A stretch of DNA of 64,000 nt from a virus, in the IMG/VR virus record IMGVR_UViG_3300027509_000002, positions 1 through 64,000 of that record, one strand, 5' to 3'. This document shows positions 4,747 through 64,000 of the stretch, piece by piece. A program made the position numbers and the translations under genes. How positions within the stretch are numbered: position 1 is the first letter of the stretch; each line of letters starts with the position of its first letter. The notes beneath the pieces are model-generated. The model saw only the letters and a program-made list of their open reading frames with translations. It was not told the DNA's origin and searched no databases.

Positions 4747-6112
4747 TAATTACTGAGTCCCAAAATAATTTACAAGTTTTATCTCCATCGTAAAACCTAC
4801 CCAAATGTAAAGATTGACAAATATTCATTGTCTGTCCAGATTTCCCTTCCCTAAATTTGTCTATATGCAATCGGGCTACTTGATTACTATATTCATCAGA
4901 AGTAGCATTGATGGTAATGAAGTAAGAAAATGGATACAATACGTTTTTAGCATCTGATATATTGTCTCGTGTTAGCACAAAATCAGGATTATTATATATA
5001 GCTGGCATGACATTATTGGATTGAGTGGCAGTTACCGTTGCACAGTCCAAGTCTTTAGATATATCAGTGATCATTTCAGCAAGATGTTTTCTTCTTTCTC
5101 TTTCATCTTTTCCACTATGCTTTTTTGTATAGGTTTCACCCGTTTGCAGTAGCTCTAAGTAGTCAAAACAAACTAAGTCTATTTTACCTATCTGGCGTTC
5201 AATATCAATCAAAATTCGCCTACATGAGTCAATGGTGACTTCATCAAAAGAATTAGAAGATATAACGGTAATGTCACCACCACCACCAGCCATTTTTTTG
5301 GCAGTAGAATACACAGCTTCCCGTTTATTATGATCAAGTTCACCCATAGCCATTTTTGCAATAGGTGTACCTGTCCAAGCTGCATCAAATAGAAGCATGG
5401 TCTGCTCTTTAGATCCCTCGAATGAAAAATACACAACATTCTTTTTTCTTGCAAACGCCTGAATACTGAGCCAACGCATCATGGTGGACTTACCAGCCCC
5501 ACTTCTACCCATTAGCAGACACGACTGTTTTCTTATTAATCCACCTCCTAAATAGTAGTCTAATTCGTTAATGCCAGTCGCAATTTTGTTAGAGTTTCCT
5601 TCCTCTGCTAGTTTAGACCTATATATTTGTCGTTCAGTAAAATTATTATATACGCCCTCATAGTCTTTTTTAACCATACTAAAAGATATGGCTTGTTCCA
5701 TTTTTCTATAGAATCTACCCAATGCTCTATCTCTATCTTCTGCACTGGTAGCTTTTTGGTATTCTTCTGTTTCAGTAGTGTGCGTATGAATAAATTTTGT
5801 GTGACGTAGCCATCCTTCAAAATCCTGAGCAATACTATAATGCCTATCTCTTACATCACATTGGTTAATGTCAAACAGGATCTTTACAACTTCTTCATCT
5901 TTTTCAAACTCCTGAGTCAATCCACCATACGTAGGCAACTGTCTACCATGAAGAGCAAAGTTATACTTTACATGCTTAAATAGTTTTTTAAATGCCTCAG
6001 AGGGTAAATATTCAAACTGCATGTGATCAATTAATAACCCCATGTAGTATTTGGATTCTATGCTGATTTTGAAAAGTTCAAATAGGAAGTCTTTTTGTAA
6101 AAATCTACTCAT
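4712..6112 (-). CDS. DnaB-like replicative helicase
   Basis: Walker A LLMGRSGAGKST and Walker B-like DLVCFDYLELL in a RecA-fold C-terminal half. Lies in a replication gene neighbourhood. Confidence 0.7.
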   Translation of the reverse strand: MSRFLQKDFLFELFKISIESKYYMGLLIDHMQFEYLPSEAFKKLFKHVKYNFALHGRQLPTYGGLTQEFEKDEEVVKILFDINQCDVRDRHYSIAQDFEGWLRHTKFIHTHTTETEEYQKATSAEDRDRALGRFYRKMEQAISFSMVKKDYEGVYNNFTERQIYRSKLAEEGNSNKIATGINELDYYLGGGLIRKQSCLLMGRSGAGKSTMMRWLSIQAFARKKNVVYFSFEGSKEQTMLLFDAAWTGTPIAKMAMGELDHNKREAVYSTAKKMAGGGGDITVISSNSFDEVTIDSCRRILIDIERQIGKIDLVCFDYLELLQTGETYTKKHSGKDERERRKHLAEMITDISKDLDCATVTATQSNNVMPAIYNNPDFVLTRDNISDAKNVLYPFSYFITINATSDEYSNQVARLHIDKFREGKSGQTMNICQSLHLGRFYDGDKTCKLFWDSVINEKRQIQQVEE

Positions 6113-9138: not shown

Positions 9139-9303
9139 ATGAAAAAAATAATATTTTTAATTATCGCTATTACCTTCACAACTGTTTCCTGCACTAAGGA
9201 TGCTAGTATCTATGGTAAGAAAAAATCTTCAATTAAGGGCAAAGCACATGCTGGTATGCATGATAGAGGCGGAAAAGCTGTTTGGTTTAATCACAGGCGT
9301 TAA
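9139..9303 (+). CDS. small lipoprotein, 54 aa (below ORF-track cutoff)
   Basis: ATG 9139, TAA 9301-9303. Product is MKKIIFLIIAITFTTVSCTKD.. with a lipobox Cys at residue 18. It fills the gap between two minus-strand genes. Confidence 0.5.
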   Translation: MKKIIFLIIAITFTTVSCTKDASIYGKKKSSIKGKAHAGMHDRGGKAVWFNHRR

Positions 9304-10331
9304 AACCCGATACCCTTTTTAGTCACGGATGTCTCTGCCTGAGAATCCATATTATATATATCACATAACCTCATGGGTTCTGTAGTCACGTAATCCACTC
9401 CTAATTTTTTCAATAAAGCATTAGCCTTGTCTGGAACTAAATCCTGTATCTCAGACTGCAACAATAAACGTCCTTTTCTTAACAAGGCGGTGTCAATATT
9501 ATTGATGTCACTATTGATAGTGCAAATGATCTTAATGTTTAATAAATCCTTCATCAATCCATCGGTAAGATTTAATATAGTACTCACATAAGGATTAACT
9601 CCCTGATCTCTTGATCCCAAGATGTTTTCAGCATCTTCAATAATGATAATAGAATTTTTTAAGTCTTCTAATGCAAAATCCATAAAGGATGGGTCAATGA
9701 ACATGTCAATCATATTGTTGGGCAAGAACACAAACTTTTTGGGCACTTCTTTTACAAGGGATCTAATGAGGCTGGTCTTTCCAGTACCAGGTTCAGAGTG
9801 AAAGATCACCAACGATTCCTTGTTTTCAGCTAAACTGCTTTTCAAAAACGCATAATCGACCAGCGTATCTTCATTATAATTTAATGAAATATCTGTAGAT
9901 TGTGTAATGACATCAAAATCAATTAAATAAAGCCCCATGTTACTCGAACCTACAATATGAACTGTATTTTTGTTATTGGGATCATTAGAAATATATGACT
10001 TTATTGACATAAAAATCTGATAACCCGAAATTTTTTCAGGAATAAACGTAAATGTACACCACGTTGTTTTTTTCTTATTGTTTAACGACATTGACATCAC
10101 CATGCCTTGCTCAAAAACCACTTTATTATTATCCAGTGATCGATATTCTTTTCGGACAGTATTGGTTCGCATTAACCTACGTCTCATTTTTTTCACCTCA
10201 CTGGTCTTGATCTCAAAATTGAGTTTGTGATAAACATACACATCGAATTCAGAAACCATTAAATAATGGGCATATTCATAATCGTCTGGATGTGGTGCGG
10301 AACTATTGCTTAAAAAACTCATGTACGTCAT
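9300..10331 (-). CDS. classical AAA ATPase
   Basis: Walker A HSEPGTGKTSL, Walker B IIIIEDAENI, second region of homology DTALLRKGRL. The start is probably MTYMSF. Confidence 0.75.
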   Translation of the reverse strand: MTYMSFLSNSSAPHPDDYEYAHYLMVSEFDVYVYHKLNFEIKTSEVKKMRRRLMRTNTVRKEYRSLDNNKVVFEQGMVMSMSLNNKKKTTWCTFTFIPEKISGYQIFMSIKSYISNDPNNKNTVHIVGSSNMGLYLIDFDVITQSTDISLNYNEDTLVDYAFLKSSLAENKESLVIFHSEPGTGKTSLIRSLVKEVPKKFVFLPNNMIDMFIDPSFMDFALEDLKNSIIIIEDAENILGSRDQGVNPYVSTILNLTDGLMKDLLNIKIICTINSDINNIDTALLRKGRLLLQSEIQDLVPDKANALLKKLGVDYVTTEPMRLCDIYNMDSQAETSVTKKGIGF

Positions 10332-10350
10332 ATTTATATTAGCAATATAT

Positions 10351-10387
10351 AAAAAAAATCCCCAAAACAAATTAATTGTAATGGGGA
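10351..10387 (-). terminator. Rho-independent terminator (minus strand)
   Basis: Minus strand reads TCCCCA, a 17-nt loop, TGGGGA, then T8. It lies just downstream of the 10414-11658 gene. Confidence 0.6.
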
Positions 10388-13442: not shown

Positions 13443-13877
13443 CTAATCTTCACTAAGAATTGCGGTGTGATTGTCTATAGGTGTAGTATTCAGTGCCGTT
13501 GTGCCATCAGTCATAGAAAAACCATTTGTTCTACCAGTATCAATACACAATAAGGAATCGTTCATTTCAGACTTATTTTTTTCTTCCTCCCTCATGCATA
13601 TTGCCAGAATACCATAATTAATTAAATCCATTAGACTATCTTCAACAGGTTCGTTCTTCACTTCTGTTTTAGTAGCTAAATTATTGAGCCTCACAATTTT
13701 TGTATTCATAAAACGCAAAATAGAGCCATAGTCTGTATCTCCACTAAGTTTTGCGGTTAATTTAAAGTTACTTAATACATCACCTGATGCTGCATAGTCA
13801 TGCCCCTTTTTTTGTCGTAATTCGTGTAATTCTGAAAATATCCTTTCATATACTACTTTTTGCTCTTCACTTGTCAT
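13443..13877 (-). CDS. MazG-like / DUF1599-like all-alpha NTP pyrophosphohydrolase (tentative)
   Basis: Pattern KKGHDYA..NTKIVRL..EPVEDSLMDLINYGILA resembles MazG-type phage proteins. Overlaps dnaE by 4 nt. Confidence 0.35.
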   Translation of the reverse strand: MTSEEQKVVYERIFSELHELRQKKGHDYAASGDVLSNFKLTAKLSGDTDYGSILRFMNTKIVRLNNLATKTEVKNEPVEDSLMDLINYGILAICMREEEKNKSEMNDSLLCIDTGRTNGFSMTDGTTALNTTPIDNHTAILSED

Positions 13878-16800
13878 TTTATGATTAATTTACTCTGTTT
13901 ATATGATTGTATTTGTACGTTATCTGATCTAAAATCTTTTCTCAAAACGCCTTGAAAATTTACCAACTTACCCTTAGCCGATAATATTTTGTCTTTATTA
14001 GGAGATAAAAAATCATTCCATATAATAGCTTCAATTTTATTTGAATTCTGTTCTACAGTAATCTTACATATCTCACCTACTTTAGTGTTAAACACCCTTG
14101 TTTCTCTAACAATACCAATGACACTGGCTATCTTACCAATATGTTTTTTAGTAATGGAATTAATCTGCATTGGATTTGAAAGTGCACCACCAAGCCCTGC
14201 ATAATCGATAATAGCATAGCCACATAAATCCTTTTGCTTTATTGCAAATGCGGTATTGCTGCATAATCCAGACCCATTCATGAAATCTGTATAGTCATCT
14301 GAATGCATAGTGGCGTGCAACAATGAAGCCCGATTAGAATATTTCGTTCCAACATTCTCAACTTCATCAAATGCACCGCACAATATAAGATTGGTTAGCG
14401 TTCTCTTATCAATTTTTACCCTTGAAACAAAATCATTTAGGCTATAAAATAGCCCCTTTTTTCTTTCCTGAACAACTAAATCTACCTTTTTAACACCGAC
14501 ATACTTAATTGACGATAAAGACCAGTATATTGTATTGTTATCAAAATCTGTATAATAGCTATCACCAGATTTATTGATGTCTGGTGGCATTAGCTTCATG
14601 TGAGCGTTCACACTAATCTCATCTATAATGGATGACAAATTTCTATCGCTGGCATATTGTAGTGCAGTAGTATAGAATTCAAGTGGATAATAACTTTTGA
14701 GCCATTGCGTATAATACCCTGTAATACCGTAACATGCAGCATGAGACTTATTAAAGGCATATTCACCAAAATATTCAATATCTGTCCATAAAGTCGAGGC
14801 TTGTTCTTCTGTATATTGGGAACTAGACATAATGCCATCGATAAATTGATTTTTATACTTCATTAATAAATCAATCGATTTCTTTCCAATGGCTTTTCTC
14901 ATGTCATCAGCATCACCTAAAGTAAAACCAGCCAGATCCGTACAGATCTTCATTACCTGCTCTTGATAGCATAGAACCGAATGCGTTTCATTTAAAATAG
15001 ACTCAGATTTAGGATAATAATTTGGTGCTTCATCACCATTCTTAACTTTAATGTATCTAAGGTGCGATCCTGAGCCCATTGCACCAGGTCTGTACAGCGA
15101 TACCGTTGCAATAATATCTTCAATCGTATTAGGCTTCAATTGCATGCAATAATCCTTTAACCCTGCACCCGACAATTGAAATATATCTTCATTAAACCCC
15201 TTATGAAACAAGCTAAATACTTTTTTATCATTCAATGGTATATCTAGCATATTCAGATCAATACCCTTTGATTGCTTCACTAAAGACTTGATATTCATTA
15301 TCTTATCAAGCTGATTTAAACCCAATAAATCAAGTTTTAAAAAACCATGTCCCTCCAATGTATCTTTTTCCCACTCTGTCACATTATGTCCATCCACTTT
15401 TCTTACAGGCAAATAATCATATACGGTAGTAGGATTACCCTTAGCATCTTCACTAGGGACGATTACAATACCTGCTGCATGAATACCAAATGAACGGGGC
15501 TGCAATTCTAACTGCTCAATCATTTCAATGAGCTTGTGGTGCTTGTTAATTGCCTTTTTGAGTTTCGGTGCAGAAGCAGCAGCTTTAAATAAAGCCTGAA
15601 TTCCATTTCCTGCATCACTTGGGATCATAGCAGTTAGATAATTCGCATCTTTAAACTTTTCACCTCCATACTTAAATAAATCTTTACATAAAGATCGTAA
15701 CTTTAATGCCTGATTTGTTCCAATGAATGCGACATTATTTTCTCCATACTTAGAGAATATATGGTCAATGATTTCCTGTCTATGAGCAGATGGAACATCT
15801 TGATCAATATCTGGCAACGTACCCTTCATTAAACGTGCCTCATTTAAGAAACGTTCAAATAGTAAGCCGTAGGCAATCGGGTCTACTTCCACTATATCTA
15901 GCAAATATGCTATCAAAGATCCAGCAGCAGAACCCCTGCCAATACCAGTGAGTATCTTTTTACCTTTACAATAAAGAATAATGTCCTTTAGTATCAAAAA
16001 ATAGTCAATCACATTACCCTTAGATAACACCATCGCCTCTTTTTCAACTCGCTTCATATATACGGCTTCATCTAAGCCCATAGCAGACACTTTTCTTTGA
16101 AACCCTTCCATAACATAGTGCATAAAGAGATCACTGCTGCTAGAGGCCAATTGCTTTTCCTGTTCACTAAAAATGTACTTTGGTAAATAAGACTGTTCTT
16201 TAACTATGGTGTAGTTACAGTTGTCGCATATATCATTTGTGTTTTTAATGCCATCAGAAAACAACTGCATTAAGAGCTCTTTGTTTTTAAAAAGAGGTGC
16301 ACATTCAATAAATAATTCCTGAAAAGACTTTAGGTATTGGTTTTTGGATAAATTATAGAAACCAGAACCACCGATTTCATTTACCAATATCTTAGTAAAA
16401 GAATCTTCTTTGTCTAAATAAAATGCATCCTGTATTACAACGGGCTTAAACTCATCCATGTGCTTATCAAAGTAAGCCTTTAAATAATTAAGTCGCTTTA
16501 AATCGGTACTATTAGATTTAAACTCGGCAAAATCCACTTGATAATATACATCTGTCATAGAAGACAAGATAAACAGATTACTTAAATCAGTATCGGTGCA
16601 CACCACAATAAAGAGACCATCCATTAGTTTAAAAAAGTCGCCTTCATTGATATAGCCAGCATTCTCTTCTATGGATCTGTGAATGCTTAATAAATTTTTC
16701 CATCCCACTTTACTTTTACAATAAAGTTTTACGTCATATTTAATGTTTTTTGCCCCCATAACGGTGGCCTGCATGCCAATAATGGATTTTAACCCATACT

Positions 16801-17245
16801 GCTCACATGCACCTTGAAACTCTATTACGCCTGCCAATGTATTATGCTCGGCAATACCCAACGATTTATAGCCAGAGAATTTAGCCTTTTTACACCAATC
16901 CTGATAGCTTCTAGTGCCATTTAAAATCTCATACTTACCATGAACACCTAAAAAGGCGTAAAGTTCCTCAGAAGCCCCAATTGACATACCTATGTACTTT
17001 AAAGGCTGTATCTGAAAATATTCTTTACGACTATAATAGTATTTAGTGCCAAATAAAAACATATAGTAATCACACGACTCTAAGTCCTTTATGGTTTTCT
17101 CTGTGAACTGAATCTCAAATTGATCGTCAAAGGTAAAATCCTGCACACGATGTACATGCAAATATCTTTTACCATCTATCACGTAGACACTGCCCTGTTG
17201 TTCAAAGTCAATATTATATGTCTGTAGCCACTTAATAAGCCCCAT
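13874..17245 (-). CDS. dnaE: DNA polymerase III alpha subunit (DnaE-type replicase)
   Basis: 1123 aa. PHP region GIAEHNTLAGV, GRGSAAGSLIAYLLDI, palm motif LPDIDQD, HAAGIVI, and an OB-like C-terminus. Confidence 0.9.
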   Translation of the reverse strand: MGLIKWLQTYNIDFEQQGSVYVIDGKRYLHVHRVQDFTFDDQFEIQFTEKTIKDLESCDYYMFLFGTKYYYSRKEYFQIQPLKYIGMSIGASEELYAFLGVHGKYEILNGTRSYQDWCKKAKFSGYKSLGIAEHNTLAGVIEFQGACEQYGLKSIIGMQATVMGAKNIKYDVKLYCKSKVGWKNLLSIHRSIEENAGYINEGDFFKLMDGLFIVVCTDTDLSNLFILSSMTDVYYQVDFAEFKSNSTDLKRLNYLKAYFDKHMDEFKPVVIQDAFYLDKEDSFTKILVNEIGGSGFYNLSKNQYLKSFQELFIECAPLFKNKELLMQLFSDGIKNTNDICDNCNYTIVKEQSYLPKYIFSEQEKQLASSSSDLFMHYVMEGFQRKVSAMGLDEAVYMKRVEKEAMVLSKGNVIDYFLILKDIILYCKGKKILTGIGRGSAAGSLIAYLLDIVEVDPIAYGLLFERFLNEARLMKGTLPDIDQDVPSAHRQEIIDHIFSKYGENNVAFIGTNQALKLRSLCKDLFKYGGEKFKDANYLTAMIPSDAGNGIQALFKAAASAPKLKKAINKHHKLIEMIEQLELQPRSFGIHAAGIVIVPSEDAKGNPTTVYDYLPVRKVDGHNVTEWEKDTLEGHGFLKLDLLGLNQLDKIMNIKSLVKQSKGIDLNMLDIPLNDKKVFSLFHKGFNEDIFQLSGAGLKDYCMQLKPNTIEDIIATVSLYRPGAMGSGSHLRYIKVKNGDEAPNYYPKSESILNETHSVLCYQEQVMKICTDLAGFTLGDADDMRKAIGKKSIDLLMKYKNQFIDGIMSSSQYTEEQASTLWTDIEYFGEYAFNKSHAACYGITGYYTQWLKSYYPLEFYTTALQYASDRNLSSIIDEISVNAHMKLMPPDINKSGDSYYTDFDNNTIYWSLSSIKYVGVKKVDLVVQERKKGLFYSLNDFVSRVKIDKRTLTNLILCGAFDEVENVGTKYSNRASLLHATMHSDDYTDFMNGSGLCSNTAFAIKQKDLCGYAIIDYAGLGGALSNPMQINSITKKHIGKIASVIGIVRETRVFNTKVGEICKITVEQNSNKIEAIIWNDFLSPNKDKILSAKGKLVNFQGVLRKDFRSDNVQIQSYKQSKLIIK

Positions 17246-17550
17246 TATCCCTGTCTGCCGTGTTTGCGTTCAAAATATCTTCTGTCTTTACCTCCCAAAG
17301 TAGGCATAATTTCTTTCTTAAAGTGCTCAGTAGCTCTTTTTTTTGCTTCTGCTTTAGTACGTCCTTTTTTGTGTTTTCCAGAAATAATAGTAAAGGCGTG
17401 TCCATCACCCTGTTCTCGAACATCTACATTTTCCTTAGTACACTCTGGGCATACAGGGTTTTTTTCACGATTAGACCAAACATATTCTTTAAAATAATGC
17501 TCACAGTCATTACACTGAAAACTCTCTTCATATAGGGTTATTCTACTCAT
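17245..17550 (-). CDS. zinc-ribbon protein (FmdB-like)
   Basis: YEESFQCNDCEHYF..NPVCPECTK gives a CxxC..CPxC ribbon, followed by a basic tail. Confidence 0.45.
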   Translation of the reverse strand: MSRITLYEESFQCNDCEHYFKEYVWSNREKNPVCPECTKENVDVREQGDGHAFTIISGKHKKGRTKAEAKKRATEHFKKEIMPTLGGKDRRYFERKHGRQG

Positions 17551-18278
17551 ATTTCTTCAATTCTTTCTTTAGCTATTTCAAAATATTTATCATCCATTTC
17601 TATTCCTATGAAATTTCTGTTTAGATTCTTACACGCTACTCCTGTTGTTCCTGATCCCATACAGTTATCCAAAACAAGATCTCCTTCGTCACTAAATGAA
17701 CTAATTAGAAATTCCATTAAGCTTACTGGTTTTTGTGTGGGATGGAGCTGATCTTGTCTTCTCCATTTTTGTTGAAAAAATTGCACTGTCCCTGGGTATC
17801 TAAAGCCATAATTAACAGTCTCGCTATCGTTTGTTACCCCTAATTTATGATTATTAGGTTTACTGCCTTTATTAGCTTTTCTTTTCCTGTAGTAAGGCTC
17901 TCCTTTTATTAATTGAGGGTTGTACTTAACTTTTCCGCTACCAAATATCAGAATACTCTCATGCTTTGCAATTGGTCTATACTTAGCAGTAAAAGCACTT
18001 CCGCTTTTGCTTTTATGCCATACAATTTCATACTTATACATTTTTTCATTACTTAATGCAAGTTTGTAGGTGAATAATCCTGTACCAAACAAAGCAATAG
18101 CACCGCCCTTCTTTATAATTCTTTTGTATTGCTCCCACAGCAAATTATTAGGCATTGCATTATCCCAATCATTTGAAGTGCTGCCATAAGGTAAGTCACA
18201 GCAAATAAAATCAACACTATCGTCTGGAATGTTTTTCATTTCCTCTAAGCAGTCGCCTTTTATTAAATTAATTTTCAT
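17547..18278 (-). CDS. DNA methyltransferase, beta-class N6A/N4C, variant motif IV
   Basis: Motif IV reads CDLPYGS rather than DPPY. HPTQKP is present. C-terminal motif I is NCMGSGTTGVA. Confidence 0.8.
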   Translation of the reverse strand: MKINLIKGDCLEEMKNIPDDSVDFICCDLPYGSTSNDWDNAMPNNLLWEQYKRIIKKGGAIALFGTGLFTYKLALSNEKMYKYEIVWHKSKSGSAFTAKYRPIAKHESILIFGSGKVKYNPQLIKGEPYYRKRKANKGSKPNNHKLGVTNDSETVNYGFRYPGTVQFFQQKWRRQDQLHPTQKPVSLMEFLISSFSDEGDLVLDNCMGSGTTGVACKNLNRNFIGIEMDDKYFEIAKERIEEI

Positions 18279-19047
18279 TTATTCTGTTTTTTGCTATTTC
18301 AAAGTATTTGTCATCTTGTTCAATTCCTATGAAGTTTCTGTTTAAGTTCTTAGCTGCTACTCCTGTTGATCCTGAACCCATTGTGAAATCAAGCACTGTT
18401 TCACCTTCATTGGTGTAGGTTTTAATTAAGTATTCCATTAGTTCTACTGGTTTTTGTGTTGGGTGAACTCTTGCGTTTATATCAAATTTATAAGTTTTTG
18501 TTTTCGCCTGCGGTATTGGCACTGGATAACAAATTATACTAAATGGATTTCTAGTGCCATCGTCTTTTTTATATTTCCTTACAGATTTTGCATAGATCGT
18601 GTTTCCAAACTCTACTTCCTTAAAGGTTTTTCGTTTAGTTAAGAATTCTTTATCTGTCACTCCCCATTTCTGTGGTAAATATTGGTATTTAGAAGATTTA
18701 GAAAATACAATAATGTTTTCATGCACCTTAATATGCTTTTGTTTTGCCCCAAAGCCACTACCGCCCTTGTTTTTTAACCAAATAATGTCATCTCTAAAGT
18801 TTTTAATATTACTCATCCTTAATGCACTACTAAACGGCTCACTACCAAATAAAACAATAGCCCCGTTAGGTTTTATAATTCTATGCAACTGCTCCCACAT
18901 AGGCTCAAAAGGAATAACCGAATCCCACTTACAAGCAGTAGTTCCATAAGGAGGATCTGTGATAATAGCATCTACTTTTATTCCTAAATCCACCATGCCT
19001 TGCATAATTTCAAGGCACTCTCCTTTAAATAAATCTATATCACTCAT
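18268..19047 (-). CDS. DNA methyltransferase, beta-class N6A/N4C
   Basis: Motif IV TDPPYGT, HPTQKP, C-terminal motif I FTMGSGSTGVA. Paralog of 17547-18278. Confidence 0.85.
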   Translation of the reverse strand: MSDIDLFKGECLEIMQGMVDLGIKVDAIITDPPYGTTACKWDSVIPFEPMWEQLHRIIKPNGAIVLFGSEPFSSALRMSNIKNFRDDIIWLKNKGGSGFGAKQKHIKVHENIIVFSKSSKYQYLPQKWGVTDKEFLTKRKTFKEVEFGNTIYAKSVRKYKKDDGTRNPFSIICYPVPIPQAKTKTYKFDINARVHPTQKPVELMEYLIKTYTNEGETVLDFTMGSGSTGVAAKNLNRNFIGIEQDDKYFEIAKNRINEN

Positions 19048-19628: not shown

Positions 19629-19859
19629 GTGGACAAAAAGATTGATACAAAAGATAAGAACCTGAAAATCATGAAGATACTTCTGGATGCCATTGAAAGA
19701 AGCCCGACAACTGATTTTCAAAAAATTCTTTACTTTTCAGGCGTAACCAACTTAGTTGATTTAGAGCTAGAAAACGATGAAGTCATGCCCCTATTTGCAT
19801 CAGATGTGTATGAAAGTAGTGAACAAACACTAGAAAAAACAATGTCCTTTTGTAATTAA
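19629..19859 (+). CDS. hypothetical acidic protein (the only + ORF inside the minus arm)
   Basis: ORF track with a GTG start. ATG 19671 is an alternative start. Tail-to-tail with the terminase gene. Confidence 0.4.
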   Translation: MDKKIDTKDKNLKIMKILLDAIERSPTTDFQKILYFSGVTNLVDLELENDEVMPLFASDVYESSEQTLEKTMSFCN

Positions 19860-21325
19860 AGGAACATGTAGTCAAAATCGCCTTCCATCAATAGGTCTGT
19901 AACTCCATGCACAAATCCATCCACCATATCGTCATTAGTAGAATTGGGGAAAGTGCATAGTTGATCCATAAAAGCAGTAACATACGAACCCTTTATAACT
20001 CTAACCCTACGGGACTCTAATAGAGGTGAAATAGCATTTAGCCTAGTAATTTTGTCATCTTTAGGTGATGGCAGCTCTACAACGTTTAGCATAGTAGAAG
20101 CCCTTAATTGAGACACCACAGACTTACCAGAAGATTTGGGCTCTATCTTTACCTTTGAATTCTGATTGTATCTATTCGCTATACAAAACTGTGGAATATA
20201 TTTTACCAGCTCATGAAATTCTTTTCTAATCTCCTGAGCATTAGCTACATATACAATATTATCTTTCTTAAACATTACCAAAATACCCGTAGCATCGTTT
20301 TCTTGTTTAGCGGTTTCAGCAGTATCAAGGTAAAAATTCATGGGACTATTAATTAAGTCTAAGGTAACTGACTCTGCATCCACCATGTCGAACCAAGACC
20401 TTTTCACCATATTACCTTCATCTGGGGCTGGACGTTGTTGCAATTGTCCTGCTGCCTCTGATGAACCCATTTGTTTTTTATAGTTATTTAGCTCTATGCG
20501 ATCAAAACGATCTGGCCAAAATAATCCATCTATATAATTCTCTTCTAGTTCCTTTGGCGATAAAATGGCATGATCTTTTTCACTCGCTAATTCGGCTGGA
20601 ATACAAATGTGATCATAAAAAGATCGATTGTTGGCTAATAAAAACCCACTAAGGTCTTCTTCATGTAGTCGTTGCATAACCACAATTCTAACACCCACCT
20701 TGGGCTGATTCAAACGGTTATATAAAGTGCCAGTATAGAAATCATTTGCATTTTTACGTTCTACTAAAGATTTAGATTTTTTAGGGTTCAAGGGGTCATC
20801 GAGTATTATTATATCTGCCCCCTTACCAGTAACAGTACCACCAGTACCAACGCTATATCTGACTCCACCACCAGCAATGGTAATAGAACCAATGGCATCA
20901 GTAGTCACCTTCACCTTATCTCCATAAAATTCATGAAACCATGGTGAATTCATTAGCTGTCTTGATTTCTTGGCCAAATCCATAGCTAAATCAGCAGTAT
21001 AAGAAACACAGATAAATTTCATTGTAGGATCTATTGTCCAGCACCATATAGGAAACACAACTGATACAATTAGTGATTTGGCTGCTCTAAAGGGCATATT
21101 GATAATTATATCATTACCCTTTGCTTTATTGACATTTATTCTAAAGGCTTCATCTTGAAGAATATCACAGAGATATTTTATGTGCCAGTTGTCCGAGTAT
21201 ATTCCACCTGGGTGCAAGGCCAGATAAGCATCCTTAAAAAACTCATAGTATGATCTACTATATACCGTTCTTTTTAATTGCTTGAATACATCTTCATTTA
21301 TATACTTACCTATTTCAAAAGTCAT
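19856..21325 (-). CDS. terL: terminase large subunit
   Basis: ATPase motifs MPFRAAKS (Walker A-like) and GADIIILDDPLNP (Walker B). C-terminal nuclease acidic motifs YLDTAET and NDDMVDGFVHG. Confidence 0.85.
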   Translation of the reverse strand: MTFEIGKYINEDVFKQLKRTVYSRSYYEFFKDAYLALHPGGIYSDNWHIKYLCDILQDEAFRINVNKAKGNDIIINMPFRAAKSLIVSVVFPIWCWTIDPTMKFICVSYTADLAMDLAKKSRQLMNSPWFHEFYGDKVKVTTDAIGSITIAGGGVRYSVGTGGTVTGKGADIIILDDPLNPKKSKSLVERKNANDFYTGTLYNRLNQPKVGVRIVVMQRLHEEDLSGFLLANNRSFYDHICIPAELASEKDHAILSPKELEENYIDGLFWPDRFDRIELNNYKKQMGSSEAAGQLQQRPAPDEGNMVKRSWFDMVDAESVTLDLINSPMNFYLDTAETAKQENDATGILVMFKKDNIVYVANAQEIRKEFHELVKYIPQFCIANRYNQNSKVKIEPKSSGKSVVSQLRASTMLNVVELPSPKDDKITRLNAISPLLESRRVRVIKGSYVTAFMDQLCTFPNSTNDDMVDGFVHGVTDLLMEGDFDYMFL

Positions 21326-24055: not shown

Positions 24056-25288
24056 TTAATTTATTACCATTTCGGCATTACTGTTAATAATATTACTTTT
24101 ACTGGCCTCTAGCATTTTTACATCGACATTTGTAAGCTGCGTATCATCTTCATTAAACAAGTGCCAAGACCTCTTTATTTTATGAAACTGGAAGCCTTCA
24201 ACTCGGCCAAATTTTCTAACATTGTTGGAAAAGTCCACAACAACTCCATATTTTTTATCAGGATGTATTCTGGTTATTCTACCAATAATTTGATAATACA
24301 AAGAAATTGAGGCCGTTGGTCTGGCCATCACAATGCAATCTAACTGTGGGTGATCAAAGCCCACAGATAGAATCGTTACGTTAATCACTATTCGTATATC
24401 CATAGACTTAAATCCACTTACAATACGATCACGTTCCTTTTTCTTTAATTTAGAGTGCAGTACCTCCGATTTCGGTATAATACTTTGTAGCTCTTCTGCT
24501 TTTTCAATGTCACTCACAAAGATCAATATACTCTTTCTATCTTCATTATCATTAATCTTACCTAAGATCTTCCACTTGATTGTCTCTTCATCGTACATGA
24601 TATTGATCGACTCCAACGTATATTCTGAGCCTATAGTGTTGTATTTCAGATACTTATTGTCAACTTCTACTATATCATACACAATTGGACTCCAATACTT
24701 TAGTCTAGTAACCTCCTGAATCTGAGCCACATAAAGAATATCTTTAAAGAAATCACCCCTTTTTTTGCTATGGCTGGTGAGCATCTTAGCATAACTAAAG
24801 GCTTGCATTTGAAACGAGCCTCTTTCCAGCTTAAAAGGTGTAGCAGTTAATCCAAGTACATTTGGTATTGCTGCCTCTGTTACAAATACCCTAAGCATGC
24901 CATCAGCTTCACGAGAAAACCTGTCACATTCATCCATAATGAGCTTAGTAAAACCCAATTCTTTAAACTCTGCACCCATTTTCTTTATACTCCCTAGAGT
25001 AGCAAAGGTAACGTCTGATATTTCTTTCTTGCCAAAGGAAGCAGAATAAACAGAAGCAGTTCCACCATTCATGGTATATTTTTCGTAATTTTGAGCCAAT
25101 AGTTCTTTAGAGGGTTGTAGCACTAAAACCTTACCATCTACTTTTTCTGCAATTTTTGCAATACAAATAGATTTACCGAATGCTGTAGGTAAAACAAGTA
25201 TAGATGGACGTGTTTTTTTCTTAGTATTTAAGAACTCAATGCCTATTCTAACTGGCTCTACCTGATTTTCTCTTAGTGTGATTGACAT
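24056..25288 (-). CDS. SF2 DEAD/DEAH-box DNA helicase
   Basis: Motif I LPTAFGKS, motif II IMDECDRF, motif III GLTATP, motif VI QIIGRITR. Confidence 0.85.
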   Translation of the reverse strand: MSITLRENQVEPVRIGIEFLNTKKKTRPSILVLPTAFGKSICIAKIAEKVDGKVLVLQPSKELLAQNYEKYTMNGGTASVYSASFGKKEISDVTFATLGSIKKMGAEFKELGFTKLIMDECDRFSREADGMLRVFVTEAAIPNVLGLTATPFKLERGSFQMQAFSYAKMLTSHSKKRGDFFKDILYVAQIQEVTRLKYWSPIVYDIVEVDNKYLKYNTIGSEYTLESINIMYDEETIKWKILGKINDNEDRKSILIFVSDIEKAEELQSIIPKSEVLHSKLKKKERDRIVSGFKSMDIRIVINVTILSVGFDHPQLDCIVMARPTASISLYYQIIGRITRIHPDKKYGVVVDFSNNVRKFGRVEGFQFHKIKRSWHLFNEDDTQLTNVDVKMLEASKSNIINSNAEMVIN

Positions 25289-25297
25289 TATAATAAT

Positions 25298-25314
25298 TTA
25301 TAAAAACAAATGTA
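25298..25314 (-). promoter_or_regulatory. minus-strand promoter elements (TACATTTG -7 box plus TTTGTTTTTATAA)
   Basis: The reverse complement reads TACATTTGTTTTTATAA. TACATTTG fits the Bacteroidota TAnnTTTG -7 consensus. It lies 9-24 nt upstream of ATG 25288. Confidence 0.45.
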
Positions 25315-25362
25315 AACTAAATTTATTTGTTTCACATTACTTTTTTATGTAAAATTTTTAAT

Positions 25363-25370
25363 TACTTTTG
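25363..25370 (+). promoter_or_regulatory. plus-strand TAnnTTTG -7 box (TACTTTTG)
   Basis: Perfect TAnnTTTG match pointing into about 490 nt with no long ORF before recA. Confidence 0.35.
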
Positions 25371-25487
25371 CCCTAGCATAAGATTATTGTTGGATATTAA
25401 CCAGAGGGTTTCACGACAGCTTTAACACCTAAATAGGTAGCGTTCCCTAATAAAACAGACCGATACTTTCTCTTAAATCAGATAAAT

Positions 25488-25643
25488 GGGTTTTCTAAAA
25501 GACTTGCTACCCGATCTGAGCCATACTTGATACCTTATTTATACAGTAATGCGTGGGAGCAAATCTTTCTTAGAGCCCCTATTTCTTCTCTTTATTAACT
25601 TAAAGGGGGGATTTAGGGGGGTTTCTTTAAAGAAAGACTTGCT
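25488..25643 (+). repeat. imperfect direct repeat GGGTTT(T)CT..AAAGACTTGCT, two copies
   Basis: Copies at 25488-25508 and 25618-25643. The exact 11-mer AAAGACTTGCT occurs at 25498-25508 and 25633-25643. Confidence 0.6.
25605..25621 (+). other. two G6 tracts (GGGGGGATTTAGGGGGG)
   Basis: G6 at 25605-25610 and at 25616-25621, in an otherwise AT-rich genome. Confidence 0.7.
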
Positions 25644-25693
25644 TTTTCTCACCTTCTTAGTTTCCTTTTTTCCAGTAATACACACATATATTA

Positions 25694-25709
25694 TTCTCTA
25701 AATAGAGAA
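25694..25709. promoter_or_regulatory. palindrome TTCTCTA-AA-TAGAGAA
   Basis: 7-bp perfect arms with a 2-nt spacer. Operator-like. Confidence 0.4.
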
Positions 25710-25760
25710 AAAAAGAGGTAGAACCAGTAGTGAACATTAATACTATTTAAAGGGAAAAAA

Positions 25761-25779
25761 AACCAAATATAATTTGGTT
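25761..25779. promoter_or_regulatory. palindrome AACCAAAT-ATA-ATTTGGTT
   Basis: 8-bp perfect arms with a 3-nt spacer, 82 nt upstream of the recA ATG. Operator-like. Confidence 0.45.
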
Positions 25780-25860
25780 AAAAAACTAATAGTTAAGTTG
25801 TTAGCAATTAGTTACCTACTTATAGTGCTATTTAGGATATTTATTATATATTGCAATAAT

Positions 25861-26817
25861 ATGAAGAAAGAATTGCAAAGTATTATAGATCAAGTATCTA
25901 GTAAAATGGGTAAAAACTCATTAATGGCATTAGGAGAAACTGCTGATACTAATATTGATGTTATTTCTACTGGTTCATTAGCATTAAATGAAGCATTAGG
26001 TATAAATGGGTTTCCAAAAGGTAGAATAGTGGAAATATATGGTCAAGAATCATCAGGTAAGACCACATTATGTATTCATGCTATAGCAGAATGTCAAAAA
26101 AATGGTGGAATATGTGCTGTAGTAGATGCAGAACATGCTTTTGATCCAGCTTATGCTACTAATTTAGGGGTTAATATAGACGATTTACTCATATCACAGC
26201 CTGATTGTGGTGAAGATGGATTAGATACTGTAGAAGAGCTTGTAAAGACTAATCAGGTGGATCTAATTATTGTAGATTCTGTATCTACTCTTACTCCTAG
26301 AAGTGAATTAGAGGGTAATATGGGTGATTCTTCTATGGGTGTACATGCTAGGTTAATGAGTCAAGCACTTAGGAAATTAGTAGCTATTGTACATAAAACA
26401 AAAACTTGTGTTATTTTTATTAACCAGATTAGAATGAAAATTGGTGTAGTATTTGGTAATCCAGAAACTACTACTGGTGGTAATGCATTAAAGTTTTATT
26501 CCTCTATGCGTTTAGAGATAAGAAAATCTACACCATTGAAAAAAGGTGAAGATGTGTATGGAAATAAGACAAAAGTAAAAATCGTAAAGAATAAACTAGC
26601 CCCACCTTTTAAGAAATGTGAATTTGACATTTTATATGGAACTGGTATTGACTATTTCGGTGAGATTTTAGATAAGGCCACTGTTTTAGGTATTGTTCGT
26701 AAAAAAGGAGCATGGTATAAATACAATGATAGTAATATTGGACAAGGTAGAGAAAGCACGGTAAATCTACTTAGAGATAATCCAGAATTAGTAGAGGAAT
26801 TAACAAGTAAGTTCTAA
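25861..26817 (+). CDS. recA: RecA recombinase
   Basis: [15 protein letters not shown] (Walker A), [10 protein letters not shown], and an L2-like [26 protein letters not shown]. Start set to ATG 25861, not the TTG at 25774. Confidence 0.9.
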
Positions 26818-27131
26818 TGACACCAGAAGAATTCTATTATAGAGATAAGGGCATGATGAGGCTATTGTTAGCTTTATTTGATATGGATGAAGATGATCAT
26901 GATTGTTTACAGGAAGGGTGTAGACATATAGACGATGCTACTCCAAGTGAACTAGATTCTTTACTTAGAGAACATGATTATTTACATAAATTCTCAGATC
27001 CAGAAACTACAGAGTATTTATCGAATTGTAGCTTACCTGTATTAGAAAAGGTAAGGGTTATTTTAGAAAAAAATGAAAGTTTTTTAGCATGTGCCGTTGT
27101 TAGGGATCTTATTAAAAAAGAAAACACATGA
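26817..27131 (+). CDS. hypothetical acidic protein between recA and the sigma factor
   Basis: ORF track. Overlaps both neighbours (ATGA-type coupling). Confidence 0.5.
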   Translation: MTPEEFYYRDKGMMRLLLALFDMDEDDHDCLQEGCRHIDDATPSELDSLLREHDYLHKFSDPETTEYLSNCSLPVLEKVRVILEKNESFLACAVVRDLIKKENT

Positions 27132-28003
27132 AAAAGATAGTCATTACACCCTCTATAACGAATTGGAGAATTAAGTCTGTGTATCGATACATGCAGGACC
27201 TACAAGACACTACTTCTAATACTAAAGCAGAAGAGCAGGCTTTATTTAAACGTCTTAGAGAGGATGGTGACGAGTCTGCTAGAGAGAATATTATAAAGTC
27301 TAACCTTAGATTTGTTATCACTGTAGCAAAGCAGTATCAGAATCAAGGTATATCTTTAGATGACTTAATTGCAGAGGGTAATGTGGGATTATTAGATGCC
27401 ATTGATAGATTTGATACGACTAAGGACTTAAAGTTTTTCTCGTATGCTGTATGGTGGATTAGATACTACATAACCTACGCCATAGCAAGACAAAGTAGAA
27501 TTGTTGCCTTACCTATGAATAAAATCAATAATATTGTGAAAATCAATAGACATATTGAAAGACGTGAGCAGGAATTAGGGAGAGCTGTGAAAAAAGGAGA
27601 TATAGAAGAAACTATTAAGCAAGATGTACCAACGATCACTACAGATGACTTCAATGTTTGTTATGGTGCTAGAGATAGATCTATTTCTTTAGATTCTACA
27701 CTATCTTCACAAGATGAGGTACATACGCTAGTAGATACAATGGAGAGTGAAGATATTTACTATAGAACAGAAGACCGTATCTTAAATAAGGACGTAAAGA
27801 CCAATCTCATGGAATTGTTAGAGACCTTACATGTCATTGAAAAAGATATTTTGTTGTGGCAATTTGAAATGAATAATCCATTCAAATGCATGAATGATAT
27901 TCTTATCACATATGCTTTAAGCAATAAGCAGTATAACTTTATTTACAATAGAGCTTTGGAAAAGTTAAAGAAATCAGGTAGGAGCTCACTCATTAAGAGA
28001 TAG
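27128..28003 (+). CDS. sigma-70 family RNA polymerase sigma factor
   Basis: Region 2 reads ENIIKSNLRFVITVAKQYQNQGISLDDLIAEGNVGLLDAIDRFD..FFSYAVWWIRYYI. A C-terminal region 4-like HTH is present. Confidence 0.85.
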   Translation: MKKIVITPSITNWRIKSVYRYMQDLQDTTSNTKAEEQALFKRLREDGDESARENIIKSNLRFVITVAKQYQNQGISLDDLIAEGNVGLLDAIDRFDTTKDLKFFSYAVWWIRYYITYAIARQSRIVALPMNKINNIVKINRHIERREQELGRAVKKGDIEETIKQDVPTITTDDFNVCYGARDRSISLDSTLSSQDEVHTLVDTMESEDIYYRTEDRILNKDVKTNLMELLETLHVIEKDILLWQFEMNNPFKCMNDILITYALSNKQYNFIYNRALEKLKKSGRSSLIKR

Positions 28004-29180: not shown

Positions 29181-30776
29181 ATGGATAGCGAACAAAAAAA
29201 ATTTTCTTCTAAGATTGATGAACTGCGAGATAAAGAGGAAAAACTAAAAATTGAAAAATCTTTAGTTTTAAAAAATGCTCTACATAGTCAGGATGTAGTT
29301 GAAATCCAAAAGGCTCAAAATTACATTTCTTCTGTTTCTGATAAGAAAACGACTACTTCAAATAAGTCGTTACTTATTGATCCACAGGCTGTTACGTCAA
29401 ATGGTTTCTTAGATAAGAACTATCGTGTTTCCTACAATGTACTTAGAAATATGGCCAAAGTGCCAATTATTAAGGCTATTATTGAAACACGTAAGGAGCA
29501 AGTATTGTCTTTTTGTGAACCACAGAAAAACAAGTATTCTGTAGGGTTTGTTGTAAAGCCAAAAGATCATGACGAATCTAAAGACTTGTCCAAAGCACAG
29601 CAGTCACGAATTAAGGAATTGACATCTTTTATTCTTAACTGTGGTGACAAGGCGAATACATTTCATGGTGATACATTCAATTCTTTTACTAGGAAATTTA
29701 TGGATGACTCACTTACTTTAGATCAGGGTACATGGGAAAATGTTTATGCTAGAAGTGGTAAGGAGCTGGTGGAATTTATGGCTACAGATGGTGCTACATA
29801 TAGAATTGCCGATTCCTTTAATGACGAGTCAAGGCATAAAGAAAAATTGGTTAGAGGCTATCTACCGTATTACGTGCAGGTTTACAATGGTGCTATATCA
29901 GCCGAGTTTTACCCATGGGAGCTTACATTTGCTGTAAGAAACCCACAAAGTAACATATATAGCTTTGGTTACGGTAAGAGTGAGCTAGAAGATCTGATTT
30001 CAACTGTTACCAGTATCATTAATGCTGATTCGTATAATTCAAACTATTTTAAAGTAGGAGCTAATCCAAAAGGTATCTTAAAGGTATCTGGAAACATATC
30101 TACTTCACGTTTAGAGGAATTCAAGAATCACTGGCAAAGTCAGGTTGCAGGTGTACGAAATGCACACAAATTACCAGTTATAGAAGCTGATAAGATGGAC
30201 TTCATTAGTACGCAGACCAACAATAAAGACATGGAGTACGGCAAATACCAAGAGTATTTGATCAAATTGGCTTGTGCAGCTTATAAGATAGATCCATCAG
30301 AGGTAGGTTTTCCTATGAGTGGATCAAGTGATTCAGCACCAATGTTTGAGGGTAACAATGAAGCTAGATTAAAGTATTCTAAAGATAAAGGGTTAAAGCC
30401 TCTATTAAAGTTCTATCAGCATTATTTGAATAGAAACATAATGGAGATTAAAGATCCAAATTATGAGATAGAGTTTGTTGGTTTAGATGCTGAGACACCT
30501 GAGCAGGAGCTTGAAAAGAACATTAAAGAGGTTTCTAACTATAAAACAGTCAATGAGGTTCGTAAGTCCGTGGGATTAGATCCGTTAGACGATGGCGACA
30601 TTATTTTGAATCCAGTGATGCTACAAGCAAAGCAGATGGCCATGATGGGCGATGAAGAATCGAATGACTACATGGATGAGTCAGGAGATATGGGCATGGA
30701 TAGTTTAGGAGAGGAAGAAGAAAATCCATTTATGAAGGCCATACAGGTGGAAACAGATCGTATTTTAAGTGAGTAA
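29181..30776 (+). CDS. portal protein
   Basis: 531 aa. The core YFKVGANPKGILKVSG..EEFKNHWQSQVAGVRNAHKLPVIE..YQEYLIKLACAAYKIDPSEVGF is typical of portal families. Acidic C-terminus. Confidence 0.75.
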   Translation: MDSEQKKFSSKIDELRDKEEKLKIEKSLVLKNALHSQDVVEIQKAQNYISSVSDKKTTTSNKSLLIDPQAVTSNGFLDKNYRVSYNVLRNMAKVPIIKAIIETRKEQVLSFCEPQKNKYSVGFVVKPKDHDESKDLSKAQQSRIKELTSFILNCGDKANTFHGDTFNSFTRKFMDDSLTLDQGTWENVYARSGKELVEFMATDGATYRIADSFNDESRHKEKLVRGYLPYYVQVYNGAISAEFYPWELTFAVRNPQSNIYSFGYGKSELEDLISTVTSIINADSYNSNYFKVGANPKGILKVSGNISTSRLEEFKNHWQSQVAGVRNAHKLPVIEADKMDFISTQTNNKDMEYGKYQEYLIKLACAAYKIDPSEVGFPMSGSSDSAPMFEGNNEARLKYSKDKGLKPLLKFYQHYLNRNIMEIKDPNYEIEFVGLDAETPEQELEKNIKEVSNYKTVNEVRKSVGLDPLDDGDIILNPVMLQAKQMAMMGDEESNDYMDESGDMGMDSLGEEEENPFMKAIQVETDRILSE

Positions 30777-63470: not shown

Positions 63471-63520
63471 AATTGATAAATACATATTAATGTATTAACT
63501 TTGAAGCAAAATTTAACACA

Positions 63521-64000
63521 ATGGAAGATAAAATACATGAATTAATAAAGATAGCTATGCCCATTAGTATAGATGACAAAGGTAGACAAGTAACCTCTGC
63601 AAGAGACCTATATACTTTCCTAGAATTGAAGGAAAGATTCTCAAAATGGATGGATCGCATGCTGAGCTATGGATTTTCGGAACACACTGATTATCAGCGT
63701 GTGTACCATTTGGTACACCCGACAAAAGGAGCACCATCAGTAAAGAAATTAGACTATGCTCTTACATTAGATACCAGTAAGCATATAGCTATGGTTCAAA
63801 AGACACCAAAAGGTAAATTAGCAAGACAGTATTATATCGATATAGAAAAAAAGCATAGAACACACCAGCATGCATTACCACAGACTTATGCAGCAGCTCT
63901 TTTTGAGGCAGCTAAAATGGCAGCTAGAAATGAAGAGCTAGAAAAAGGACTAACGGAGTGTAGACCGTTTTTAAATTATGCAGAAGCGTTCATGGGTACT
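63521..64000 (+). CDS. AntA-like antirepressor domain protein (5' partial, runs off the window)
   Basis: Open frame from ATG 63521 to the window end. ARDLYTFLELKERFSKWMDRMLSYGFSEHTDY matches the AntA/AntB N-terminal pattern. Confidence 0.6.
   Translation, partial: MEDKIHELIKIAMPISIDDKGRQVTSARDLYTFLELKERFSKWMDRMLSYGFSEHTDYQRVYHLVHPTKGAPSVKKLDYALTLDTSKHIAMVQKTPKGKLARQYYIDIEKKHRTHQHALPQTYAAALFEAAKMAARNEELEKGLTECRPFLNYAEAFMGT

Follow-up and report, generated by a model that had tools for sequence, protein, structure and literature searches.

The window analysed here comprises positions 1 to 64,000 of the IMG/VR virus record IMGVR_UViG_3300027509_000002, i.e., 64,000 nt of a phage contig of ~99 kb and of Bacteroidota type. 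The subject is the intergenic region 25289-25860, localized between two divergent genes recognized from the list of open reading frames (ORFs) and from Pfam: an SF2 helicase with ResIII and Helicase_C domains (24056-25288, minus strand) and recA (25861-26817, plus strand). The sequence of the region is identical across three independent assemblies of the contig. It contains three copies of an 11-mer, an 88-nt inverted repeat, a pair of G6 tracts (the «G-box») and a T-rich tract. A control site acting at the level of DNA, probably the origin of replication, is a likelier identity for the region than a known RNA.

The leftward arm encodes an RNase_T exonuclease, TerL, RuvC, two methyltransferases, a DnaE-type Pol III alpha subunit, SbcCD and a DnaB-like helicase; a Toprim primase is encoded farther left, on the plus strand. 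The rightward arm encodes RecA, a sigma-70-family factor (27128-28003) and the portal protein. A preliminary description of the region, made from the letters alone, had placed it between a replication arm and a recA/sigma/late arm, and the gene content agrees. It had also called the region the only long non-coding stretch: the region is indeed the longest one in the window, because the other long gaps without ATG-initiated ORFs are coding, i.e., 2681-3643 (the Toprim primase, which starts with GTG) and 63471-64000 (an ORF running off the end of the window). The nine motifs of that description are all at their positions. The set of replisome proteins is phage-encoded and of bacterial type: Toprim primase (2681-3643, GTG start), DnaB-like helicase (4712-6112) and DnaE-type Pol III alpha subunit with a PHP domain (13874-17245). 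The closest cellular RecA sequences are those of Flavobacteriales, Bacteroidales and Tannerellaceae, thus the host is probably a member of the Bacteroidota.

Three segments can be distinguished by GC content: the left edge (25289-25379) with 16.5%, the core (25380-25660) with 37.0% and the right third (25661-25860) with 23.5%. The core had been described as locally GC-richer; this is correct, but its value is near the window average (34.5%) and is conspicuous only against the AT-rich flanks. Both flanks rank among the five least stable 100-bp windows of the 64 kb. The left one contains the beginning of the leftward operon that runs from the helicase to the terminase; the right one, with three palindromes, precedes recA. 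The central module, i.e., 11-mers, inverted repeat, G-box and T-rich tract, has no second occurrence in the 64 kb and is bordered by the two segments that are least stable in its surroundings.

The clearly non-random features of the region are the 11-mers, the 88-nt hairpin and the G6-ATTTA-G6 box. The 11-mer AAAGAYTTGCT is present three times within 150 nt (starting at 25498 on the plus strand, 25558 on the minus strand and 25633 on the plus strand) vs. ~2 occurrences expected in the whole 64 kb. Copy A (AAAGACTTGCT, 25498-25508, plus) was obtained from the motif count; copy B (AAAGATTTGCT, 25558-25568, minus, hence inverted) and copy C (AAAGACTTGCT, 25633-25643, plus) were obtained from both the motif count and a repeat scan, and are the 5' foot and the 3' foot, respectively, of the long hairpin. 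The direct repeat previously noted is thus real, and larger than it had appeared.

The 88-nt imperfect inverted repeat (25557-25644), which could form a hairpin or a cruciform, is absent from the preliminary description, although the G6 tracts listed there are its 3' arm. When folding is compared with that of shuffled sequences, the plus-strand RNA reaches −41.1 kcal/mol (z = −6.0) and the minus-strand RNA −29.8 kcal/mol (z = −5.6), the former being more stable because of G-U pairs. As DNA, the z values are −4.2 and −3.6. All four folds, whatever the strand and the type of nucleic acid, beat every shuffle. The partner of the second G run in the fold is the C-run arm GAGCCCCTA (25573-25581, plus), a copy of TAGGGGC in inverted orientation. 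On the contrary, the part of the core to the left of the hairpin (25371-25557, ~190 nt) folds no better than its shuffles (z ~0).

The G-box itself, GGGGGGATTTAGGGGGG (25605-25621, plus), contains the exact 15-mer GGGGGATTTAGGGGG at 25606-25620, extended to G6 on either side. For GGGGGATTTAGGGGG with up to two mismatches, 0.02 occurrence is expected per window. The box is the sole site with a double G run in the 64 kb, where no triple-run site is found, and its two tracts, 5 nt apart as first described, are two of only three G6 runs in the window. It has exact matches in other viruses and belongs to a widespread motif family (see below). Directly 3' of it, a pyrimidine-rich and T-rich tract of 54 nt (25622-25675, plus; 72% pyrimidine, 50% T) is, by its composition, a candidate unwinding tract. 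As to a mobile element, i.e., a miniature inverted-repeat transposable element (MITE), no match longer than 25 nt was found between the region and ~590 fetched loci.

The foot of the hairpin is directly followed by a TTTTTCTC run (25644-25651, plus), terminator-like on the plus strand only. It could be proposed that a plus-strand transcript starting at ~25377 is ended or attenuated at the 88-nt hairpin and its U5, yielding a non-coding RNA (ncRNA) of ~270 nt or a regulated leader of recA; in that case the G-box would contribute the G-rich arm to a hairpin of terminator type, akin to the one found after stop codons in Bacteroidota (see below). The greater stability of the hairpin as plus-strand RNA (−41.1 vs. 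−29.8 kcal/mol) and the restriction of TTTTTCTC to that strand are consistent with this, as is the right-facing TACTTTTG box 190 nt upstream of the hairpin. However, a consensus terminator scan called no terminator. U5 does follow the foot, but the stem is long (40 bp), AT-rich and imperfect. No structure is seen in the 190 nt ahead of the hairpin.

The start of such a transcript would depend on one of the two −7 boxes of the preliminary description. Their coordinates are right. By its position, TACATTTG (25307-25314, minus), 18 nt upstream of the helicase ATG, is a plausible leftward promoter element; likewise by position, TACTTTTG (25363-25370, plus) faces right and would possibly start a plus-strand transcript ~235 nt ahead of the G-box. 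Their assignment as promoters is not supported, since TAnnTTTG is at chance frequency: 42 occurrences on the plus strand and 50 on the minus strand of the window (92 in total) vs. ~43 expected per strand from composition. Reading the sequence upstream of the right-facing box, no TTTG is found at the usual −33 spacing.

A structured ncRNA or a long structured leader had been suggested, and the analysis does not support it. The Rfam scan then proposed has been run: Rfam 15 gives no hit at gathering thresholds in the whole window, and with E≤10 on 25100-26000 the best hit in the region has 18 bits vs. a cut-off of 48 bits, with a mammalian long non-coding RNA model, i.e., noise. Neither transfer RNA nor transfer-messenger RNA was found by the corresponding search, and there is only one significant hairpin. 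The two small ORFs of the region, of 50 aa on the plus strand (hydrophobic, as T-rich DNA tends to encode) and 48 aa on the minus strand, were considered as small proteins and rejected, with no Pfam match and no counterpart in the relative described below.

Relatives are few. The GenBank phage collection contains similarity at the level of recA only. Relatives of the helicase in IMG/VR are ~50% identical and non-syntenic; those of the sigma factor are, among the matches listed, 30-41% identical, none of them being syntenic and some being on contigs too large for a phage; the RecA search gave one clade member only. A single contig (L156) keeps the order recA/gap/helicase, with proteins 58-68% identical and a gap of 645 nt. 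The two gaps are unalignable: their best local score is 35, while the maximum for shuffles is 39. The structured-RNA reading is thus unsupported, because this sole syntenic relative has no alignable intergenic sequence in which covariation could be sought. L156 has, similarly placed and oriented, a small GC hairpin GCCCCGTTTGGGC, then (TTTTTCTTTTTCTTTT)x2, then GC palindromes; the layout of the gap may thus be conserved between L156 and the window though its sequence is not. It must be noted that positions 4356-5000 of L156 contain two GC hairpins with reverse-complement cores (GCAGGCGATAGCCTGC and GAAGGCTATCGCCTTC), ~75 nt apart, and a third hairpin, GTGGCTACGCCAC; the equivalent part of the window holds AT-rich palindromes.

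For the transcription element, the hairpin of L156 and its repeat are a favourable point by position and orientation, while the lack of an Rfam match and of sequence conservation with L156 is unfavourable, as is the promoter box at chance frequency. Moreover, the fixed place of the motif in phage origins (see below) would be left without explanation. Overall this reading is considered rather unlikely.

The right third contains the perfect palindromes TTCTCTA-AA-TAGAGAA (25694-25709) and AACCAAAT-ATA-ATTTGGTT (25761-25779). There are three distinct perfect palindromes in the 572 nt, i.e., ~9 times the density of the window and the top of 222 tiles. The palindromes of the preliminary description are thus present; against the composition of the region itself their enrichment is modest or marginal, the count being reached in 15 of 300 Markov simulations. 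A repeat scan adds the inverted repeat AACTAATAGTTAA / TTAGCAATTAGTT (25784-25813; 13-nt arms, 85% complementary). A weak, two-copy direct repeat of 24 nt, CCAGTAATACACACATATATTATT / CCAGTAGTGAACATTAATACTATT (25672-25747, plus), is imperfect, with 71% identity and copies 52 nt apart. The calls for the start of recA differ: two assemblies give 347 aa from TTG 25774 and one gives 318 aa from ATG 25861. Since the RecA model of Pfam aligns from residue 3 of the short form (318 aa), and since RecA of L156 has 322 aa, ATG 25861 is more likely the start. The TTG start would make the palindrome 25784-25813 and part of 25761-25779 coding.

These palindromes could be operators. The region might then be a regulatory hub only, with divergent promoters and with palindromes on which the sigma factor (27128-28003) or some regulator of the phage would act, so as to switch between the replication operon on the left and the recA/late operon on the right; there would be no origin. 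The divergent arrangement of the genes, the palindrome density, the sigma factor gene 1.3 kb away and the TACATTTG box 18 nt from the helicase start would all suit it. Set against this are the marginal result of the simulations, the absence of an identified regulator gene next to the region, and the G-box and the hairpin, which it does not explain. A hub and nothing else is thus judged very unlikely; as one part of the region, it is compatible with an origin, the two models being not exclusive.

The G-box is also found in other phages. A 21-mer taken around the G tracts is matched exactly, over 23-25 nt, in two unrelated high-GC viral contigs, and both matches are beside iteron-like repeats. 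The longest matches of the window box (20-25 nt) are phage copies, of which 3 out of 6 (L032, L093 and L347/L388) are inside initiator genes. In IMG/VR, GGGGGATTTAGGGGG has at least 120 hits vs. 47 in total for an A/T-swapped control, and the 17-mer GGGGGGATTTAGGGGGG at least 120 vs. 13 in total. Two abundant enterobacterial prophage families inflate these raw counts, therefore the contexts were de-duplicated and are given more weight; among the matches listed, 56 motif contexts and 31 control contexts were obtained, to which the following values refer. An ORF of 140 aa or more on the C-rich strand encloses the site in 27/56 motif contexts (5/31 in the control), and a C5 run is present within 16 nt on the 5' side in 21/56 (control: 2/31). 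The mean T content of the 3' flank is 40% vs. 28%, and its pyrimidine content 60% vs. 47%; the 3' flank of the box in the window has 68% pyrimidine over 60 nt.

The ORFs spanning the box belong to the Pfam families Phage_rep_O, DUF1376/YdaU, HTH_36/MarR-like winged helix and DUF6291+Phg_2220_C, and are named «DNA replication protein O» or ydaU in GenBank. The box is at residues 40-270, mostly 140-205, of initiators having mostly 260-370 aa, i.e., in the linker between the N-terminal and the C-terminal domains. It is read in two frames, as PPKSP and as PLNPP, while the third frame holds a stop (TAA). PPKSP is coded by CCCCCTAAATCCCCC in lambdoid O/ydaU genes; a synonymous spelling of it is CCGCCGAAGAGCCCG. 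Because the box is read in two different frames, its conservation acts at the nucleotide level, i.e., on DNA. The genomes carrying it range from 34% to 68% GC, and phages of both Proteobacteria and Firmicutes have it in initiator genes.

On the G strand the order of the elements is constant: C5, then 2-7 nt, then G5ATTTAG5, then a T-rich tract with short pyrimidine repeats (some of which resemble the 13-mers of oriC), then iterons. When the position of the motif is not required, there are 26 distinct initiator-gene contexts, in which the flank 3' of the box is T-rich (50-70% T over at least 60 nt). At least three copies of a 10-mer within 350 nt are found downstream in 26/50 clusters and upstream in 12/50. 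In a sample of 80 O-type loci picked by the C-terminal protein domain, and thus unbiased for the motif, 74 keep the exact box, and the box with its AT-rich tract is more conserved than the adjoining coding sequence. The 27-mer of the element is AAGTCCCCCTTGGGGGATTTAGGGGGC.

Three other loci extend this pattern. Firstly, the annotated rep_origin of P22 (32840-32984, in gene 18) consists of iterons and an AT-rich tract and ends with CCCCC-TTA-CCCCC-TAAA-GGGGG; this end is a three-run variant of the G-box with different loops, at the same place after the AT-rich tract. Secondly, a divergent intergenic region of a viral contig with 57% GC (L044, 3480-3600) contains about six TAGGGGGAT boxes in both orientations, then two perfect DnaA boxes (TTATCCACA) 20 nt apart; by its sequence it is a free-standing, origin-like arrangement with a G-box. 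Thirdly, a non-coding locus (L031) has the box, then CTGCTT x4, then TGCACGTGCAAA x3, in the same order as the copies in initiator genes. The G-box of the window is thus identical with an element flanking the AT-rich tract of phage origins.

Another reason for the motif in initiator genes was considered, i.e., a programmed frameshift. A −1 slip on C-CCC-CCU (CCC-CCU-AAA), or a +1 slip on CCC-CUA(-A), would reach the hidden TAA, and a C5/G5 hairpin comes next (e.g., L037 9719-9733, minus strand, and L034 4025-4039); CUA is a rare Leu codon in E. coli. By analogy with dnaX, such a slip could produce a shortened initiator consisting of the N-terminal domain alone. As an explanation of the motif it was rejected, the non-coding copies being unexplained, and it is kept as a side-hypothesis. 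A description of the G-box was not found by searching for its literal sequence (both strands, RNA spelling and shorter cores), in a searchable literature that is itself incomplete; a keyword search gave papers on replication whose titles or abstracts do not contain the motif.

The same core is present in bacterial chromosomes. One genome per bacterial species was scanned for CCCCC-NN-GGGGGATTTAGGGGG, and the figures of this paragraph refer to the matches listed. About 9 records out of 10 are from Bacteroidota, in many genera. The consensus has 27-28 nt, (A)AAGT-CCCCC-TT-GGGGGATTTAGGGGG-C, between unrelated flanks, C at +1 being present in 82%. Several copies are present per genome, some as inverted pairs 77-240 nt apart and some as tandem arrays (examples among the bacterial contigs L477-L596: L506 5873-5971, L497 6403-7880 and L480 4423-4686). 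Most copies are intergenic (116/137). On the GGGGGC side, a C-sense gene has its stop codon at 0-10 nt from the element, or uses the TAA of the element itself, in 41/56 cases; in 19 cases the ATG of a G-sense gene is 7-25 nt downstream, and the first residues of the products so started, judged by eye, resemble those of ArgG, LeuA, AsnB, Icd and IlvB. In the same Bacteroidota loci, 93 looser copies have the form C4-6 / loop / G4-6 / (ATTTA, TTA or ATTGA) / G4-6. Rfam assigns no family to 17 of the Bacteroidota loci with the element, and a literature search by literal sequence gave nothing relevant. To judge from these positions, the G-box behaves in the presumptive host phylum like a gene-boundary element, either REP-like (repetitive extragenic palindromic) or terminator-like.

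This has consequences for two of the alternatives. For the transcription element, copies 0-10 nt past stop codons or supplying the stop (41/56 on the GGGGGC side) are a further favourable point; however, the terminator-like sense in the hosts is the C strand, which is the minus strand here, where no gene reads toward the element. The second alternative is that the box is a passenger, i.e., a degenerate selfish or host-derived Bacteroidota repeat of the REP/REPIN type (REPIN being a pair of inverted REPs), in the one site of the phage genome that is tolerant to insertion, and with no specific role for the phage. The core is dispersed over numerous genera of Bacteroidota, each genome having several copies that are often tandem or in inverted pairs 77-240 nt apart; this would agree with a passenger, and so would the frequency of the looser C-run/G-run/G-run family in those loci and the fact that L156 does without the box. 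On the other side, REPs are not single-copy, as the box is in the 64 kb. The window copy has neither the adjacent AAGT-CCCCC-TT arm nor the C at +1 that are the hallmarks of the host type; it resembles the phage copies, with its G6 runs and its T-rich 3' side. It is moreover embedded in a larger, highly significant inverted repeat made of a phage-specific 11-mer. A passenger is thus an unlikely explanation.

A wider hypothesis covers both phages and chromosomes. The C-run/G-run/(ATTTA)/G-run box might be an undescribed structural element of DNA or RNA shared across phyla: it would mark the origin boundary in at least four initiator families, as a variant in P22 and free-standing in the window, and would have been multiplied in Bacteroidota as a gene-boundary element. 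This is possible, yet doubtful. The runs are of pyrimidine-purine-purine type on one strand and pyrimidine-pyrimidine-purine type on the other, with loops of 2-5 nt; as a model, the box could fold into a pyrimidine-purine-purine triple helix within one molecule, or into a hairpin with two states.

The reading that we favour, tentatively and somewhat short of an even chance, is that of a unique origin-type module inside a divergent promoter region. The module would be the replication origin of the phage, within a central DNA-level control region; what is shown is the make-up of the sequence and its comparative links, while each functional step below is inferred. The G-box and the inverted repeat would set a fixed and stable boundary, whether by acting as a GC clamp, by extruding as a cruciform or by folding as a single strand. 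Next to this boundary the DNA would melt in the T-rich tract 25622-25675, and the DnaB-type helicase (4712-6112), the Toprim primase (2681-3643) and the DnaE-type polymerase (13874-17245) of the phage would be loaded there. Opening might occur by two routes: (i) a protein bound to the 11-mers or to the palindromes; (ii) a plus-strand transcript, with a G-rich segment and then a U-rich one, leaving an R-loop. Counted in favour of an origin are the position between the replication arm and the recA/late arm, the uniqueness of the G-box, which is very unlikely by chance, the phage-type flanks of this copy, the low stability of both AT-rich flanks of the gap, and the T-rich tract directly 3' of the hairpin and G-box, in the same order as in the 26 initiator-gene contexts and P22. 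The origin had been a candidate of the preliminary description too, and gains comparative support from the G-box adjoining AT-rich tracts and iterons in phage initiator genes.

Several observations weigh against this origin-type module. The G-box is not origin-specific, because the same core is abundant in Bacteroidota chromosomes at gene boundaries, where a role as an origin is impossible; in three Bacteroidota-type phage families the box is non-coding too, in divergent regions or upstream of terminase operons; and it is absent from L156, the sole syntenic relative. The C4 run of the window (25576-25579) is 22 nt upstream of the box, not 2-7 nt, and pairs with the second G run in a longer hairpin. 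No gene of the Phage_rep_O, DUF1376, DnaD or DnaA-like type is adjacent to the region or present anywhere in the window. A classical iteron array of three or more direct repeats is not apparent: the 11-mers are two direct copies and one inverted, besides the weak two-copy 24-nt repeat. DnaA boxes (TTATCCACA with up to one mismatch) are lacking in 25200-25900, while 22 are scattered over the rest of the window. Finally, GC skew tracks gene orientation, the segment 1-4136 included, and is uninformative on replication.

The iterons of the preliminary description are thus reduced to three 11-mers at best, with no initiator gene adjacent. The window has no recognizable initiator or helicase loader, its sole AAA+ protein (9300-10370) being Cdc48-like. 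A decayed initiator gene in the gap was considered: the tblastn hit (29% identity over 95 aa, with two stops) is driven by the motif alone, and a hidden Markov model of the initiator C-terminal domain, devoid of the motif, has no hit in any frame of the gap. This candidate was rejected.

The non-coding phage copies also bring in packaging. The region could serve in packaging, as a pac or cos site heading the operon of the large terminase gene: in two of the Bacteroidota-type phage families with a non-coding G-box, a TerL-like gene lies downstream of the box, 60 nt to 2 kb away, and TerL of the window (19856-21325) is in the operon starting at the gap. But TerL is 4 kb distant here, the orientation of the box with respect to the terminase operon is opposite to that in these two families, and the lambdoid box is in the O gene, far from cos/pac (pac of P22 is at 4-25). 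This explanation is considered extremely improbable. It must be noted that the two packaging genes are on opposite sides of the divergent junction: TerL (19856-21325) belongs to the leftward «replication» arm, within the operon that starts at the gap, and the portal gene (29181-30776) to the rightward one.

Two other observations concern the genes of the window. The methyltransferase-like ORFs 17547-18278 and 18268-19047, adjacent and overlapping, match one and the same stretch of a viral contig (L139) at 36-37% identity, and are a tandem paralogous pair. The ORF running off the right end (63471-64000) contains ...KKLDYALTLDTSKHIAMVQKTPKGKLARQYYIDIEKK... and, judged by eye, we take it to resemble an antirepressor or a KilA-type protein; if true, a gene of this kind would be a surprise among genes that otherwise look lytic.

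A divergent control region possibly holding an origin is ordinary for a phage; the G-box is the unusual part. It is conserved across initiator families, reading frames, GC contents and host phyla, and multiplied in Bacteroidota chromosomes. A sequence of 15-22 nt conserved in two frames of unrelated initiators and also at Bacteroidota gene ends implies a constraint on DNA or RNA itself, i.e., a fold or a widely conserved binding partner. Should the module be an origin, (i) the start of replication would be located in a large uncultured Bacteroidota phage with a bacterial-type replisome, and (ii) a short sequence would be available for predicting origins in phage genomes. Should the reading as a structural element be true, the copy in the window would be the first free-standing origin of such a type in a phage with its own DnaE/DnaB replisome.

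Four known systems can be compared with the module. The first is the REP, or bacterial interspersed mosaic element (BIME), including REPIN. The Bacteroidota core resembles it as a short, dispersed, mostly intergenic palindromic unit, often in inverted pairs and tight against stop codons. It differs by the absence of a GTAG or CGTC head; moreover the element is single-copy in the window, and is also found in frame inside phage genes of other phyla. Many dispersed copies per genome with inverted doublets, which characterize REPs, are found for the chromosomal copies and not in the window. The second is the intrinsic (Rho-independent) terminator, with which the window shares a plus-strand hairpin followed by a U run; its stem is however 40 bp, AT-rich and imperfect instead of short and GC-rich, and the consensus scan is silent.

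The third system is the R-loop origin, e.g., oriF and oriG of T4, the primary origin of T7, RNA II of ColE1 and conserved sequence block II (CSB II) of mitochondria. In the window, a possible promoter precedes a G-rich run on the non-template strand, and a T-rich tract comes next, an arrangement favouring a persistent RNA-DNA hybrid that ends in an unwinding tract; the promoter motif is however at chance level, and both transcript and hybrid are putative. A role in R-loops cannot be general, because the G strand is antisense to the gene in the initiator-gene contexts. As in T4, the phage carries recA, RuvC and SbcCD, for recombination-dependent replication.

The fourth system, the origin of lambda and P22, differs from the window in two ways: the window has neither a surrounding or neighbouring initiator gene nor an array of at least four iterons, and its phage has its own DnaE/DnaB/primase replisome, while the lambda type recruits that of the host via the O/P pair. 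The likeness is in the architecture and in the sequence: a tract that is T-rich and easy to melt has a GC-rich inverted repeat immediately beside it, and the G-box is identical to the element present at that place in many O/YdaU-type initiator genes and similar to the end of the rep_origin of P22.

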